From Escherichia coli (GTDB lineage Bacteria; Pseudomonadota; Gammaproteobacteria; Enterobacterales; Enterobacteriaceae): DNA of 64,000 nucleotides. Where the stretch lies: assembly GCF_050920415.1 (NCBI RefSeq), contig NZ_CP169309.1. The stretch is one strand, 5' to 3'. How positions within the stretch are numbered: position 1 is the first letter of the stretch; each line of letters begins with the position of its first letter. The position numbers and the translations under genes are program-made. Of the stretch, positions 32,333-38,165 are shown one piece after another. The notes beneath the pieces were generated by a model. It was not told the DNA's origin, ran no database searches, and worked only from the letters and a program-made list of their open reading frames with translations.

Positions 32333-33370
32333 TTAATCATCATCCGCCACGCGGATCACCACTTTGCCAAAGTTTTTACCCTTCAGCAGGCCGATAAACG
32401 TCTGTGGGGCGTTCTCCAAACCGTTGGTAATTTGTTCACGATAGTGAATTTTCCCCTCTTTCACCCATTGTCCCATCTCCTGCTGAAACTCATGGATACG
32501 GTGACCATAATCCTGACCAATAATAAACCCTTGCAAGCGAATGCGTTTTTTCAGCACCGTTGCCATCAACAGGGGTAAACGATCCGGACCGGGTGGTAGC
32601 TCTGTAGCGTTATAGCTGCTCACTAAGCCGCAGACGGGAATGCGCGCGGATGTATTGAGTAACGGTAGCACCGCATCAAATACCTTACCGCCAACGTTTT
32701 CATAATAAATATCGATACCTTTTGGGCACGCTTTCGCCAGTTGCTCGGCAAAATCATCCGCGTGATGGTCAAGGCAGACATCGAAGCCCAACACCTCGGT
32801 AGCATGGCGGCATTTTTCCGCGCCACCAGCTACCCCCACCACTCTGCAACCTTTAAGTTTGCCGATTTGCCCCACCGTCGCCCCCACTGGTCCTGTCGCT
32901 GCAGCTACCACCAACGTTTCGCCTTCTTTGGGCTGACCGATATCCAGCAGGCCCATATAAGCGGTAAAGCCTGGCATCCCCAGCACACCCAGCGACCACG
33001 ATGGATTTTGCGGATGATCGCCAAGTTTCACCAAATCATCACCACTGGATATGTCATAGTCCTGCCATCCACTGTAGCCCAGCACCCAGTCACCAGGCTG
33101 GTAATCAGGATGATTTGACTCCACGACACGGCTCACCGTACCGCCGACTATCACGCCGTCAATGTCAACCGGCGGTGAATAAGATGGCTCATCGCTCATA
33201 CGTCCACGCATATACGGGTCCAGTGACAAATAAACTGTGCGCAGTAATACCTGTCCTTCACCCGGTGTGGCGACATCATCTTCTTCAAGACGAAAATTCT
33301 CCGGAACCGGCGCGCCATGCGGACGCGAGGCCAGAACCCAACGGCGGTTACGCTGCTTTTGTTGCCCCAT
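32333..33370 (-). CDS. curA: NADPH-dependent curcumin/enone reductase (MDR family)
   Basis: Track ORF 32333..33463; conserved start MGQQKQRNRRWVLASRPHGAPVPENF. Confidence 0.85.
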   Translation of the reverse strand: MGQQKQRNRRWVLASRPHGAPVPENFRLEEDDVATPGEGQVLLRTVYLSLDPYMRGRMSDEPSYSPPVDIDGVIVGGTVSRVVESNHPDYQPGDWVLGYSGWQDYDISSGDDLVKLGDHPQNPSWSLGVLGMPGFTAYMGLLDIGQPKEGETLVVAAATGPVGATVGQIGKLKGCRVVGVAGGAEKCRHATEVLGFDVCLDHHADDFAEQLAKACPKGIDIYYENVGGKVFDAVLPLLNTSARIPVCGLVSSYNATELPPGPDRLPLLMATVLKKRIRLQGFIIGQDYGHRIHEFQQEMGQWVKEGKIHYREQITNGLENAPQTFIGLLKGKNFGKVVIRVADDD

Positions 33371-33550
33371 AATGCTCTCCTGTGCTTTTGGCATGAATCC
33401 ATCAATAGTAGCAGGCTCGCAGGATTGGTTTTGTTTGCAGTCGTCACATCCCCTCTGCAACACGCAATAATTTCATCGAGGAATCCGTTGCTTCGGGCTG
33501 TTTTCGATAGTATTGATAACGTCATTATCATTATTTTATCGAGGCCAGAC

Positions 33551-34066
33551 ATGTCCATCCGTTTTGCCCGCAAAGCCGACTGTGCTGCCATTGCGGAAAT
33601 TTATAACCACGCCGTGTTGTATACGGCGGCTATCTGGAATGACCAAACGGTGGATGCAGATAACCGCATTGCCTGGTTTGAAGCGCGGACCATAGCAGGT
33701 TATCCGGTGCTGGTGAGTGAAGAAGATGGCGTGGTGACGGGATATGCCTCGTTTGGCGACTGGCGTAGTTTCGATGGTTTTCGCCATACCGTGGAGCATT
33801 CGGTTTATGTCCATCCTGATCATCAGGGCAAAGGTCTTGGGCGTAAATTGTTAAGCCGATTGATTGATGAAGCGCGGGATTGCGGGAAGCATGTTATGGT
33901 CGCCGGGATCGAATCGCAAAATCAGGCTTCGCTGCATCTCCACCAGTCGCTGGGATTTGTCATCACCGCACAAATGCCGCAGGTGGGCACTAAATTTGGG
34001 CGCTGGCTGGATCTGACATTTATGCAGTTGCAACTCGACGAACGCAGTGAACCGGACGCAATCTGA
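33551..34066 (+). CDS. mnaT: GNAT acetyltransferase (methionine analogue N-acetyltransferase)
   Basis: Track ORF 33317..34066; conserved start MSIRFARKADCAAIAEIYNHAV at 33551. Confidence 0.85.
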   Translation: MSIRFARKADCAAIAEIYNHAVLYTAAIWNDQTVDADNRIAWFEARTIAGYPVLVSEEDGVVTGYASFGDWRSFDGFRHTVEHSVYVHPDHQGKGLGRKLLSRLIDEARDCGKHVMVAGIESQNQASLHLHQSLGFVITAQMPQVGTKFGRWLDLTFMQLQLDERSEPDAI

Positions 34067-34515
34067 TGAATCAGTCGCTTACCCTTGCCTTTTTGATTGC
34101 CGCAGGGATTGGTCTGGTCGTCCAGAACACGCTAATGGTGCGCATCACCCAGACCTCCTCTACCATTCTCATCGCCATGTTGCTGAACTCACTGGTAGGG
34201 ATTGTGCTCTTTGTTTCTATTTTATGGTTTAAACAAGGCATGGCGGGGTTTGGCGAACTGGTGTCCAGCGTACGCTGGTGGACACTTATACCCGGCTTGC
34301 TGGGATCTTTTTTTGTCTTCGCCAGTATCAGCGGATATCAGAATTTGGGAGCGGCGACAACTATTGCAGTACTGGTCGCCAGCCAACTGATTGGTGGTCT
34401 GGTGCTGGATATCTTCCGCAGTCATGGCGTACCACTACGGGCGTTGATCGGCCCAATTTGTGGCGCAATTTTACTTGTGGTTGGTGCCTGGCTGGTGGCC
34501 AGGCGCACATTTTAA
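34066..34515 (+). CDS. ydcZ: Inner-membrane protein, DMT-like
   Basis: 149-aa hydrophobic ORF; TGATG overlap with mnaT stop. Confidence 0.8.
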   Translation: MNQSLTLAFLIAAGIGLVVQNTLMVRITQTSSTILIAMLLNSLVGIVLFVSILWFKQGMAGFGELVSSVRWWTLIPGLLGSFFVFASISGYQNLGAATTIAVLVASQLIGGLVLDIFRSHGVPLRALIGPICGAILLVVGAWLVARRTF

Positions 34516-34749
34516 TCAGAGGATGGTGCCGCCTTTGGTTAACTGTTCGTGGCGCGCTTCCATATCTTCTTTATGCTTGCGACCGTGATGGGCGATCGCT
34601 GTGCGCAGACGCTGCTGCTGGGTGTAGCGATCTTCCCGACTTAACTCCGCGTCATCGCTCAGGGCGATTAATAATTCGTTCATATGGGCAATGACGCTCT
34701 CTTCAATCGCGGCATCCACGCGCGCGATGACTTCATCCAGATGCGACAT
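34516..34749 (-). CDS. ydcY: Small conserved protein
   Basis: MSHLDEVIARVDAAIEESVIAHMNELLIALSDDAELSREDRYTQQQRL... within track ORF 34516..34791. Confidence 0.7.
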   Translation of the reverse strand: MSHLDEVIARVDAAIEESVIAHMNELLIALSDDAELSREDRYTQQQRLRTAIAHHGRKHKEDMEARHEQLTKGGTIL

Positions 34750-34834
34750 ACTTTCTCCTAAGCCACTTGTGAAATTTATCGATTCATCCAAATGATATAA
34801 GTCTGCGTGGTGCCGTCAAGCCAGTGCGTAAGAT

Positions 34835-35008
34835 TTAAAACAGTGAAAACAACAGCGCCACCGGGAAACTCATCGGCCATGTTGCCCCCACCAGAAAGGC
34901 GCTTAAGAAACGGATGCGTTTCTTATCGTGAGAAAGAAACCAGGTGATAAGAAATGCGATTGCTGCCATAACCGCATAAAAAACAAGCATGTGTTGATAG
35001 AGAGACAT
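34835..35008 (-). CDS. ortT: Orphan small membrane toxin (GhoT-like)
   Basis: MSLYQHMLVFYAVMAAIAFLITWFLSHDKKRIRFLSAFLVGATWPMSFPVALLFSLF within track ORF 34835..35083. Confidence 0.7.
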   Translation of the reverse strand: MSLYQHMLVFYAVMAAIAFLITWFLSHDKKRIRFLSAFLVGATWPMSFPVALLFSLF

Positions 35009-35202
35009 GTACGGGCGTCCAGCCAGATGAATAAAACGCGCGCAAATATGCGTCATTTTTTGACGTGCATCAAGTTTTTTCACCAGTTTGAGAAAAAATC
35101 ATCAAACAGCAACTTGCCCTTATCCATCTTCAGAATGAGTATTATTGCGGATTTTCTTAACCCGTACTATACACATAGGGGCAATGATAAAAGGTGGCAA
35201 AA

Positions 35203-35298
35203 ATGAATGTTTCCAGTAGAACTGTAGTACTGATAAATGTCTTTGCTGCTGTTGGTTTGTTTACTCTTATCTCTATGAGATTTGGCTGGTTTATTTGA
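35203..35298 (+). CDS. yncL: 31-aa small membrane protein
   Basis: AAGGTGG RBS then ATG; my translation MNVSSRTVVLINVFAAVGLFTLISMRFGWFI; below the ORF track's size threshold. Confidence 0.7.
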   Translation: MNVSSRTVVLINVFAAVGLFTLISMRFGWFI

Positions 35299-35320
35299 TG
35301 TAGTGATTTTGCACGCAGCA

Positions 35321-35355
35321 CGTACTGTCAGAGAAATCACTGCTCTGACAGTACG
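35321..35355. repeat. Perfect 13-bp inverted repeat with 9-nt loop immediately after yncL
   Basis: CGTACTGTCAGAG-AAATCACTG-CTCTGACAGTACG read directly; no T-run follows. Confidence 0.7.
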
Positions 35356-35697
35356 CAAGATCATCTCATACTCTCCAGGTTTACAACATTATCCTTAATA
35401 TTTACTTCTTTTTGCTGACATCTACATTGAAATAAGTAGAAAACATCCCCCTCCTATCGTCCTTACAGACAGCTTACTGATTCAAAGGGAACTTTGTTTT
35501 CACATTTTTCTATCATCATTACTTTAGACGCGCGGGGTCTATAAATGCTTTGTACTTTCAGGGAATAAAGTAAATATAAAAAGATGGCATAAAGTTTATG
35601 CATGGCAGGATGTTTGCAACCTCCTTGAGGACGCTGTCCCATTGAAATTGCAAACCCCGCACTGGTTATCTGCCCATTTATCATGTAAAACAGACAA

Positions 35698-36507
35698 TTA
35701 TAGGTCTCTGAATATCTCAGAAAGATTGAATTTTTTATAGTCCCTCTCTTGGATATTTCCATTTGATATCAATCGATTCATCTCTTCAACAAAATAATTT
35801 ATATCATCACATTTGTTATTATCCGGAAGATCTGAATAATTATAATTCCACCACTTTATTCTCAACAATTCATCAATAATATTTGAATCAAATCTAAATC
35901 TGATTATTTTTGCAGGAACTCCTGCAACTATGGCATATGGTGGCACATCTTTGGTAACAACGGAATTGGCAGCAATAACAGCACCATCACCTATTGCGAT
36001 GCCACCTTTCAATACAACATCATTTCCTATCCAGACATCGTTTCCTATAATCGGATTTTCAGGTTTGGTAATGAATGGTTTCAATGTCCATGGCCGTTCG
36101 AACTCACTCAAGGCAAATTTATCAAATTCACCGTTATAAGTCATCATGTGAGTAGTAAAACGATTCATAGGATGATTTCCACCCATTATTTTTACATTTG
36201 ATGCAATACTACAAAATCGTCCTATATGTATATTCCCTGAAAAATGACAAGTTGGAAATGAAAATGCACCTACACTGGAAAAATTTTTTACAGGCATTGT
36301 TGAATATTCTTCAGCAATAACATTCTCTTCAATTGATATTTTGTCACCTTTTGAGAAAAGAAATAAATTCCTTTCTTTGTAAGACTTCTTCCCTTTATGA
36401 TTTAAAAATATTTTATTATCCATGCAAAATTCAAAGTGTTTTTTCGTCCACCTAAAGGTAATGGTTTTATTTTTATCTTCCGTGAATTTATATAACTGTA
36501 CGTTCAT
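35698..36507 (-). CDS. Hexapeptide-repeat acetyltransferase of the XAT class (Vat/CatB-like)
   Basis: IGRFCSIASNVKIMGGNHPMNRFTTHMM...PIIGNDVWIGNDVVLKGGIAIGDGAVIAANSVVTKDVPPYAIVAGVPAKIIRFRF...LLRIKWWNYNY; very AT-rich. Confidence 0.8.
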   Translation of the reverse strand: MNVQLYKFTEDKNKTITFRWTKKHFEFCMDNKIFLNHKGKKSYKERNLFLFSKGDKISIEENVIAEEYSTMPVKNFSSVGAFSFPTCHFSGNIHIGRFCSIASNVKIMGGNHPMNRFTTHMMTYNGEFDKFALSEFERPWTLKPFITKPENPIIGNDVWIGNDVVLKGGIAIGDGAVIAANSVVTKDVPPYAIVAGVPAKIIRFRFDSNIIDELLRIKWWNYNYSDLPDNNKCDDINYFVEEMNRLISNGNIQERDYKKFNLSEIFRDL

Positions 36508-36740
36508 ACTAAAGACATCTACTTTTACTTATAAATTATTAGTTGAATAACGATACTCTAAAGTCTTCTATGAATCAACCATGACAGGATGAAAAATCAC
36601 CATCATACCTTTAGCGCATAATAGTCGTCTAACTTTTCCACTCGTTTTAATGTATTCATTCTTATTAATCGCCAATGACTCAAAACTTCAAACGATAGTG
36701 GCCATCATATAATTTCATATAACAGCCACTAACATTTAAC

Positions 36741-38165
36741 TTAATGTTTAACCATGACATGGCGGACGACGGTGTAATCCTCCAGCCCATAAAGTGACAT
36801 ATCCTTGCCGTAACCAGAAAGTTTCTGTCCACCGTGCGGCATTTCACTTACCAGCATAAAATGGGTATTGACCCAGGTACAACCATATTGCAGCCGTGCG
36901 CTGACACGATGCGCCCTGCCCACATCTTTAGTCCATACCGAAGATGCAAGTCCGTACTGGCTGTCATTCGCCCAGTTCACCACCTGTTCTTCATTGTCAA
37001 AGGCCGTCACGCTCACCACCGGACCAAATACCTCTTTTTGCACGATGGCATCGTCCTGTAACGCGCCAGCCAGCAGCGTAGGCGCATAGTAATAACCATT
37101 ACCCTTGCGCTTTTCACCACCGGTGATCACTTTGATGTGCCCTGTCTCTTTCGCCTCTTCTACCGCCTTGCTGACACGTTCGAGATGTGCCAGCGAACTT
37201 AACGGTCCAAGCTCCGTGGACTCGTCATCCGGCGCACCAGATTTTAACGTTGCCACTGCAGCACCGAGTTTTTCCACCAGCGTATCGTAAATACCTTTTT
37301 GCGCGTAGATCCGACAAGCCGCAGTACAATCCTGTCCGGCATTGTAATAGCCAAAAGTGCGAACACCTTCGACCACTGCTTCAATATCAGCATCATCAAA
37401 AACAATCACTGGCGCTTTGCCACCAAGTTCCATATGAGTACGCTTAATAGACGGCGCTGTATGGCTGATGATGTGCTCGCCGGTGGCGATAGAGCCCGTC
37501 AGCGACACCATCCGCACTTTGGGATGTCCGGTCAGCGGATCGCCCACTGTTTTGCCTCTGCCAAACAGCACATTAATCACGCCAGCCGGGAAGATATCTT
37601 TCGCCAGTTCAGCCAGCTTCAACGCTGTCAGCGGCGTAATTTCTGATGGTTTAAGCACTACGCAGTTCCCTGCCGCCAGCGCCGGAGCCAGTTTCCACGC
37701 GGCCATCATCAGCGGATAATTCCACGGTGCGATAGAAGCCACGACCCCCAACGGATCCCGACGGATCATTGAAGTATGACCTTCAAGGTATTCGCCGGCC
37801 GCCAGACCATTGAGGCAGCGCGCCGCCCCGGCGAAAAAGCGAAAGACATCGACAATCGCCGGAATTTCATCATTGAACGCACTATGCAGCGGTTTGCCAC
37901 AATTACGGGACTCCAATTCGGCAAAAACCTGACCATTTTCTTCAATAACATCGGCCAGTTTCAGCAGGCATTCCGCACGCGCTTTCGGCGTGGTTTGCCC
38001 CCATTCGGCAAATGCTGCATCTGCCGCGCGAACAGCAGCATCCACCTGCTCTGCGGATGCCTCGGCAATCTCCAGTAAAACGTCCCCCGTTGCCGGATTA
38101 TAGACAGGCTGTTTTTCCCCTTCGCCGCTAACCAGTTCTCCGTTAATCAGTAACTTATGTTGCAT
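36741..38165 (-). CDS. patD: Gamma-aminobutyraldehyde dehydrogenase (aldehyde dehydrogenase family)
   Basis: 474-aa ORF with catalytic region ...[18 protein letters not shown]... and active-site Cys context GQDCTAAC. Confidence 0.9.

Follow-up and report, generated by a model that had tools for sequence, protein, structure and literature searches.

The perfect inverted repeat that follows the small-protein gene yncL in this Escherichia coli genome is very probably the hairpin that, one way or another, defines the 3' end of the yncL mRNA. We examined it within a 64-kb window (the whole stretch of DNA that was analysed), by comparison with other genomes and against published transcript data. 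As to how the end arises, we favour, with some reserve, termination by Rho downstream of the repeat, after which exonucleases would trim the RNA as far as a protective stem-loop, as the likeliest route. Since the stem is not followed by a U-tract, the element is not filed here as a canonical intrinsic terminator; it is probably a U-less protective 3' stem-loop of a transcript that is itself probably terminated by Rho.

The gene order of this part of the window is mcbR(-), curA(-), mnaT(+), ydcZ(+), ydcY(-), ortT(-), yncL(+), a CatB-related O-acetyltransferase(-), patD(-) and ydcV(-), and over 35100-35700 the window matches strain MFDS1022581 at 100% identity and other E. coli at 95-97%. The initial annotation had recognised the 31-codon reading frame (MNVSSRTVVLINVFAAVGLFTLISMRFGWFI) and its AAGGTGG ribosome-binding site as those of yncL, and both profile and database evidence bear this out. 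The NCBIfam equivalog NF000537 ('YncL') matches residues 1-30, the full length of the ~30-residue family, with 72.5 bits (E 1.8e-20; curated cutoff 35), and the identical sequence carries the name yncL in RefSeq (WP_001303494.1, a 100% identical record). The product is the small single-pass membrane protein YncL. The open reading frame listing gives the frame as 35194..35298, beginning at an in-frame GTG upstream of the ATG. A local Pfam profile search of the reading frame returned no YncL match; precomputed PF28073 matches are attached to YncL homologues, and a homologue search with a concatenated 62-aa YncL query matched only over-long or mis-called YncL entries. The gene also occupies the position expected of yncL: ortT, yncL, a variable segment and patD follow one another in E. 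coli and other Escherichia as well as in Citrobacter and at more distant loci. In the E. albertii representative (L005), neither yncL nor ortT was found in the 1059 nt downstream of patD, up to the contig end.

Table 1. Features of the yncL region, with positions counted from the first letter of the window.
Feature	Position	Strand	Description	Basis
Candidate yncL promoter, -10 element	35167-35173	+	CTATACA	Inference; lies inside a conserved block
yncL ribosome-binding site	35191-35197	+	AAGGTGG, 5 nt ahead of ATG	Sequence inspection
yncL CDS	35203-35298	+	ATG 35203, TGA 35296-35298; 31 codons + TGA	NCBIfam NF000537; RefSeq
Hairpin 5' arm	35321-35333	+	CGTACTGTCAGAG	Sequence, folding; covariation
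Hairpin loop	35334-35342	+	AAATCACTG; 9 nt, rare allele
Hairpin 3' arm	35343-35355	+	CTCTGACAGTACG	Sequence, folding
Predicted mature yncL mRNA 3' end	35358	+	...CAGUACGCAA-3'; 60 nt after stop	Transferred from MG1655
Candidate Rho-loading (rut-like) tract	35359-35480	+	C-rich, G-poor; downstream of hairpin	Base composition
Islet left junction	35394-35399	.	CTTAAT; repeat at 36740-36745, overlapping the patD stop	Window against K-12
AT-rich islet	35400-36745	.	1346 bp, GC 27-37%; separate from the yncL element
Sole islet gene, Vat/CatB-like hexapeptide O-acetyltransferase (CDS)	35698-36507	-		Hexapep, Vat and CatB matches below equivalog cutoffs
patD (gamma-aminobutyraldehyde dehydrogenase)	36741-38165	-	Convergent neighbour of yncL

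The signals upstream of yncL are conserved with the gene. Every Escherichia, Citrobacter and Salmonella locus compared keeps the ribosome-binding site as AAAGGTGGC, and the candidate -10 element lies inside a promoter-like block, CCGTACTATAC(A/C)CATAGGGG (also written CCGTACTATACACATAGGGG), that is kept in Escherichia, Citrobacter, Salmonella and one more distant locus. From this block we infer a transcription start at about 35178-35181; a generic sigma-70 scan did not call the candidate -10. The Salmonella orthologue, STnc1110/STM14_1932, is sigma-S dependent and was first catalogued as an sRNA (PMC5437024).

The arms of the palindrome are 100% complementary over 13 bp and begin exactly 22 nt after the yncL stop; together with the 9-nt loop and the lack of a T-run in the bases after the 3' arm (CAAGATCATCTCATACTC, also given as CAAGATCATCTC), this agrees in every detail with the initial description. 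It is the sole perfect hairpin-type inverted repeat of at least 13 bp (loop 3-20) in the 64-kb window, and only one of 200 first-order Markov simulations of the window (0.5%) held any such repeat. The folding energy is -21.6 kcal/mol (z = -4.9) for the + strand and -23.0 kcal/mol (z = -5.1) for the - strand. With 7 G-C pairs among its 13, the stem-loop is stable and close behind the gene, as in an intrinsic terminator, and when the ~180-nt yncL transcript was folded, the terminal hairpin was the sole robust structure in the centroid. The sequence that follows, CAAGAUCAU, holds 2 U in 9 nt, whereas a U-tract was taken to require ~5 or more in the 8-9 nt directly after the stem, and a consensus terminator scan of the window did not call the hairpin. 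A permissive Rfam search of positions 33000-38000 found nothing at yncL or the hairpin, and the weak matches to MIR5649 and sucA in that interval were set aside as chance.

Two larger structures were considered and rejected. In the + strand fold a second 10-bp helix, 35303-35312 / 35355-35364 with 2 G.U pairs, is added below the stem; this extension is absent in other Escherichia (L100, L004), and an end at 35358 would remove most of its 3' strand. A pseudoknot between the loop and upstream sequence (AGTGATTT / AAATCACT) can form only with the rare window allele and is disrupted by the K-12-type loop, which ~80% of genomes have.

The decisive coordinate for the hairpin comes from Term-seq of MG1655, in the curated table of Adams et al. 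(2021, eLife 10:e62438, PMC7815308, supplementary file 1). The dominant 3' end of this strand, a very strong one, is at 1517039(-), which is 3 nt beyond the 3' arm. The file spans three growth conditions and has three entries for this position; two of their scores are 75,264.6 and 536,300, which rank among the highest in the vicinity, and the end is labelled 'antisense, patD'. At 60 nt from the yncL stop it falls beyond the 50-nt limit that the authors set for 'primary' ends. The K-12 context of this end is ...CTCTGACAGTACGCAA|GATC, and exact correspondence of the stem and its flanks (L001/L003) allows the end to be carried over from K-12, the source of all the transcript data used here, to the present islet-bearing strain, where it would fall as in Table 1. 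The published end thus stands at the palindrome and not upstream of it, which was the check that the initial annotation had proposed. Taken with the conserved promoter-like block, it suggests a yncL transcript of ~180 nt, a size that fits Salmonella STnc1110. The value of this assignment lies mainly in annotation: a very abundant Term-seq end labelled as antisense to patD is given to the yncL mRNA, and the mRNA of this small protein gains a defined ~180-nt structure. The yncL gene and this kind of element are already known, and the coordinate of the end is already public, without attribution to yncL; a literature search found no paper discussing the yncL hairpin, and nothing here should surprise a specialist.

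Further transcript data point to Rho. On the same strand of K-12, 286 nt downstream, a Rho-termination region is listed at 1516753(-) with a Rho score of 16.6 (p 5e-21) and with downstream reads rising from 9 to 72 upon bicyclomycin treatment, the score being computed over 800-nt windows, so that the yncL promoter is an uncertain assignment as the origin of the readthrough (PMC7815308, supplementary file 2). Base composition past the hairpin is of the kind on which Rho might load. In the window strain the first two 78-nt segments have C/G ratios of 3.0 and 2.3 and contain 8-12% G, and in K-12 the ratio is ~1.3-1.6, the bias being stronger in the islet-bearing window. If the K-12 result carries over, Rho may load on this candidate rut-like tract in the window strain as well.

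This combination resembles a described class of Rho-dependent transcripts, whose precise ends lie directly after stable U-less stem-loops that shield them from PNPase and RNase II, and are followed by an enrichment of C over G (Dar & Sorek, 2018, NAR, PMC6061677). The yncL hairpin shares with that class the precise end directly after a stable stem-loop (from the transferred K-12 data), the lack of a U-rich tail and of an upstream A-tract, and the excess of C over G downstream; the bicyclomycin-sensitive readthrough would be a further resemblance if it stems from the yncL promoter. For yncL, the dependence on PNPase and RNase II and the true point of termination are putative, and the U-tracts of orthologues in Salmonella and at distant loci suggest that the yncL element may be a decayed intrinsic terminator. 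It is the missing U-tract, the end only 3 nt from the stem, the downstream Rho region, the C over G bias and the match to this pattern that lead us to favour Rho termination with trimming. They also make an RNA stability or processing hairpin, which the initial annotation had offered in place of a simple terminator, the more likely reading.

On this model the inverted repeat would form the last ~38 nt of a short (~180 nt), stationary-phase-induced yncL mRNA, folding as a 13-bp stem-loop. RNA polymerase would mostly pass through the hairpin; Rho would load on the C-rich, G-poor, untranslated RNA beyond it and terminate transcription within a few hundred nucleotides. The 3'-to-5' exonucleases PNPase and RNase II would then trim the RNA until the stable stem stopped them, and the precise, protected 3' end would set the stability of the yncL mRNA. 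Such an end may also keep down the antisense transcription of patD or, in the present strain, of the acetyltransferase islet.

In intrinsic termination the 3' end typically lies 7-9 nt from the stem. The yncL hairpin has in common with a canonical intrinsic terminator a stable 13-bp hairpin located 22 nt after the stop and an RNA end beside it, but it differs in having no U-tract, an end at 3 nt, a 9-nt loop and a negative terminator scan. Another described relative is the element of Salmonella STnc1110, an orthologous short, sigma-S-dependent transcript with a homologous hairpin at the same position (13 pairs including 2 G.U). The Salmonella hairpin differs in being richer in GC (-31 kcal/mol), in its 4-nt loop and in the UAUUUUUU that follows it.

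The hairpin is strongly conserved within the species. The region, with the same flanks, is present in 5411/5426 complete E. coli genomes, with or without the islet. Over a 45-nt hairpin segment only 4 E. coli records match the window exactly, 4316 differing by one base and 1090 by three. The differences follow the loop, which is of the K-12 type, AAATCAGTG, in ~80% of records, of an AATCAAC type with an extra A-U pair in ~20%, and AAATCACTG in the 4 exact matches, the loop types of the one-base and three-base classes being assigned from one record each. Within E. coli, therefore, the stem is kept and the loop is free to vary. At the third pair of the stem, one E. coli strain carries a U.G wobble and two divergent Escherichia lineages carry C-G, which looks like a wobble intermediate and the completed compensatory change.

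Beyond Escherichia, the hairpin is kept in relatives with yncL while its sequence drifts. In Citrobacter (TGGCAGAGAG(A/G)...(U/C)CUCUCUGCCA) a U-A pair is replaced by G-C, and the stem is extended at its top and eroded at its bottom; the Salmonella hairpin, GUUGGCGGGGAGG-UCCC-CCUCUCCGCCGAC, shows further double changes relative to Escherichia. In an alignment of 17 sequences, 85.4% of cells were paired, compared with 37-53% when partners were slid by 1-3 columns, and 6 of the 16 stem pairs had changed on both sides, through compensatory changes in other Escherichia, Citrobacter and Salmonella. None of 500 shuffles reached the observed covariation score, a modest statistic with few independent events behind it but with a clear direction. 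A count of stem cells bearing on the strand of action gave 20 with G.U and 15 with A.C. The folding energies are similar on both strands, and the one observation in favour of the yncL strand is the Salmonella U-tract, which lies on the yncL-sense side.

A hairpin was found 20-45 nt past the stop at every yncL locus examined, even where the sequence is unrelated. Unrelated sequences form the hairpin in Superficieibacter (AACGCCCGGC-GCAT-GCCGGGCGTT) and at a further distant locus (L084; CGATTATCCG-N6-CGGATAATCG), and in another group of loci (L085-L089) the hairpin, AAAAAAGCAGCC-TTGA-AGGGCTGCTTTTTT, is a textbook bidirectional terminator composed of A-tract, hairpin and U-tract. Judged from these comparisons, the conserved feature is a hairpin at the end of yncL with no fixed sequence, which argues against a protein-binding site. 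The orthologous site offers a series, from a canonical terminator at a distant locus, through a hairpin with a spaced U-tract in Salmonella, to a U-less hairpin with probable downstream Rho termination in E. coli and Citrobacter, that could serve as a small natural test of how intrinsic terminators decay into Rho-dependent 3'-end stabilisers. The Salmonella hairpin with its UAUUUUUU and the textbook terminator of the more distant locus run counter to the trimming route. They suggest an ancestral element that may have terminated transcription intrinsically, and some of this activity could persist in the E. coli hairpin.

The most serious competitor to Rho termination with trimming is that the hairpin is itself a non-canonical, U-tract-independent bidirectional terminator for the convergent genes yncL and patD, possibly acting through head-on collisions of RNA polymerase, with Rho as a backstop. 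Overlapping bidirectional terminators of convergent genes were reportedly described by Ju et al. in 2019 using SEnd-seq. The arrangement at this locus fits: the gap between convergent yncL and patD is 96-110 nt and holds the hairpin in E. coli without the islet, in other Escherichia and in Salmonella, and the hairpin folds equally well on both strands. In K-12, for example, yncL (1517099-1517194, -) and patD (1515578-1517002, +) are separated by 96 nt with the palindrome inside. Stem-loops between convergent genes are reported to position RNA polymerase collisions and bidirectional termination (Wang et al., bioRxiv 10.1101/2022.10.23.513370), and the single palindrome that ancestrally lay between yncL and patD is alike in this respect. 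The orthologous hairpins with a U-tract on the yncL side in Salmonella, and with A- and U-tracts at L085-L089, also speak for such a terminator. The yncL element is unlike those systems, however, in lacking A- and U-tracts in E. coli and in being kept where the convergent partner has been shifted by 0.3-2.3 kb, as in the window strain and Citrobacter. Two of the Term-seq listings of PMC7815308 show no 3' end on the patD strand from 1512428 to 1517357, although patD is possibly poorly expressed, and ExcludonFinder (PMC12288877) counts patD and yncL among the convergent pairs that overlap, which implies readthrough. The 8-fold rise in downstream reads with bicyclomycin and an end lying closer to the stem than intrinsic termination typically leaves it also count against termination at the hairpin itself, and we regard bidirectional termination as possible but the less likely account.

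A broader proposal goes beyond a passive block to exonucleases. The U-less hairpin could act as a regulated 3' module that sets how far yncL transcription invades patD or, in this strain, the horizontally acquired acetyltransferase gene in antisense, a sigma-S- and Rho-controlled excludon switch, while the conserved ~45 nt from the hairpin to CTTAAT would be a recurrent insertion hotspot receiving different cargo in E. coli, Citrobacter and other genera. We consider this combined scheme doubtful.

Cleavage of the stem by RNase III or another endonuclease, or of a yncL/patD sense-antisense duplex (excludon), might instead produce the 3' end. Stead et al. (2011, PMC3082872) report the yncL mRNA level as altered, in a direction that the text leaves unstated, in arrays of RNase E and/or RNase III mutants, with northern confirmation; the cataloguing of patD-yncL as a convergent transcriptional overlap and the reach of the + strand fold into the second 10-bp helix would also suit a double-stranded substrate. 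That outer helix is not kept in other Escherichia (L100, L004), however, and is incompatible with the transferred 3' end; moreover, a 13-bp stem is short for RNase III, and the end lies outside the stem and not within it. Endonucleolytic processing is thus an improbable origin of the end.

The LexA consensus is TACTG(TA)5CAGTA. A role for the palindrome at the DNA level, as the operator of a dimeric protein such as a LexA-like repressor, was suggested by the perfect 13-bp dyad, whose outer TACTGT/ACAGTA match LexA half-sites, and the initial annotation had likewise offered a protein-binding site. This is very unlikely. The CTGT and ACAG half-sites lie 19 nt apart and not 8, as the CTGT-N8-ACAG spacing of a LexA box demands; they become CTGG/CCAT in Citrobacter and TTGG/CCGA in Salmonella with pairing kept; and the spacer changes in both length (4-9 nt) and sequence. 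The palindrome, furthermore, lies at a gene's 3' end and coincides with the point where the RNA stops. Sequence drift with pairing kept, freely varying loops and the unrelated hairpins at distant yncL loci likewise tell against the suggestion.

It is scarcely credible that the palindrome belongs to the mobile acetyltransferase islet, whether as an end, an attachment site or a remnant, or to a repeat family such as REP: it lies within 44 nt of the islet in a gap whose insert varies by lineage, but it is present in 5411/5426 genomes against 1157 for the islet, the junction is the CTTAAT and not the palindrome, the other islet end carries no matching inverted copy, Rfam gave no match, and the element is single-copy, with a median of one place per genome (5411 genomes) and no second copy in the window. 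REP elements, which stabilise mRNA 3' ends, are alike in being extragenic palindromes in 3' UTRs between convergent genes that can block exonucleases; the yncL palindrome differs in being single-copy, unrelated in sequence and part of no repeat family.

The link between the palindrome and the islet, which the initial annotation had drawn in placing the boundary at the palindrome, is therefore corrected. The islet acetyltransferase is found in 1157/5426 complete E. coli genomes (~21%), and the ~79% without it show the same flanks around the hairpin. Where the islet is missing, as in K-12 and O157:H7, similarity to the window ends at 35404 and patD follows directly, its stop then lying 39 nt from the hairpin. 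The window strain has the islet acetyltransferase as its closest convergent CDS, at a distance of 343 nt, and the islet itself starts 44 nt past the palindrome. The yncL-patD gap carries different inserted genes in different lineages, an AraC and MFS insert in the case of Citrobacter, where ATTATCCTTAAT at the junction is also kept; the Salmonella counterpart, GATCCTTAAT, lies beside patD. In Salmonella (L106-L108) and in two divergent Escherichia lineages (L004, L100) yncL, hairpin and patD are directly adjacent, which indicates that this arrangement is ancestral and that the islet was inserted beside the patD stop.

Comparison of related loci showed that the short gap between yncL and patD carries different cargo in different lineages (loci L007–L009, L090–L099 (Citrobacter), L084 and L085–L089), with the variable interval starting right after the conserved ATTATCCTTAAT, approximately 45 nt beyond the yncL hairpin. 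In Citrobacter the gap holds either an AraC-family regulator and an MFS transporter, spanning 2.3 kb, or remnants of the two left by deletion, and in other genera it holds small unknown ORFs and a KPN01023-family peptide. Judged from these sequence comparisons, the yncL–patD gap looks like a recurrent insertion/deletion hotspot adjoining the patD stop codon.

In the E. coli window the gap is occupied by an AT-rich islet with a single gene, which was found in 1157 of the 5426 complete E. coli genomes. A CTTAAT direct repeat bounds the islet, its right copy overlapping the patD stop codon, and it contains no mobility gene. The encoded acetyltransferase scores under every NCBIfam equivalog cutoff.

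Features of the yncL–patD region (window coordinates).
Feature	Position	Strand	Description
ortT mechanical ORF	34835–35083	−	82 aa, starting at upstream GTG
AGTGATTT	35302–35309		
Hairpin loop allele AAATCACTG	35334–35342		
AT-rich islet	35400–36745		1346 bp, GC 27–37%, single gene
Vat/CatB-like hexapeptide O-acetyltransferase CDS	35698–36507	−	sole gene of islet
Imperfect hairpin	36690–36737	−	21-nt arms, directly 3′ of patD stop, within islet

In islet-bearing strains the yncL hairpin now lies 1.4 kb from patD. The imperfect hairpin that directly follows the patD stop is in turn followed by a T-rich stretch on the minus strand, and since the yncL hairpin is now so distant, this second hairpin probably serves as the patD terminator in these strains. 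An Rfam match to MIR5649, produced by the same hairpin, was rejected as spurious.

A very strong Term-seq 3′ end of MG1655, at 1517039(−), corresponds to window position 35358; in the published table it carries the label ‘antisense patD’ and is not assigned to the yncL mRNA (Adams et al., 2021; PMC7815308). This end lies 60 nt beyond the yncL stop, outside the 50-nt window by which ‘primary’ ends were defined (PMC7815308). The loop allele AAATCACTG is rare: across the 45-nt hairpin segment, only 4 of 5412 records are identical. Coincidentally, this allele is complementary to AGTGATTT, a complementarity broken by the common K-12-type loop.

Individual E. coli strains carry an IS3-family element inserted at the yncL 3′ end, which leaves yncL without annotation and the hairpin in place, and a further strain carries an IS1 element nearby (locus L102, NZ_CM185152.1; match H6, NZ_AP027445.1). 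In Escherichia albertii NBRC 107761 (L005), neither yncL nor ortT was detected across the 1059 nt downstream of patD, up to the contig end; yncL may be absent from the patD-adjacent position in this species, or an insertion may be present there.

The neighbouring ortT is annotated in RefSeq at 57 aa (OrtT, Pfam Toxin_GhoT_OrtT, 96.9 bits), and several relatives (L006, L014) carry a tandem pair of ortT-like copies. A database protein named YncL (P0002, 82 aa) is encoded on a 438-bp contig labelled Enterococcus faecalis. Its sequence is that of E. coli YncL continuing through the stop codon, across the hairpin and into patD antisense, so an E. coli read, frameshifted or present as a contaminant in an Enterococcus assembly, is almost certainly the origin of the entry.
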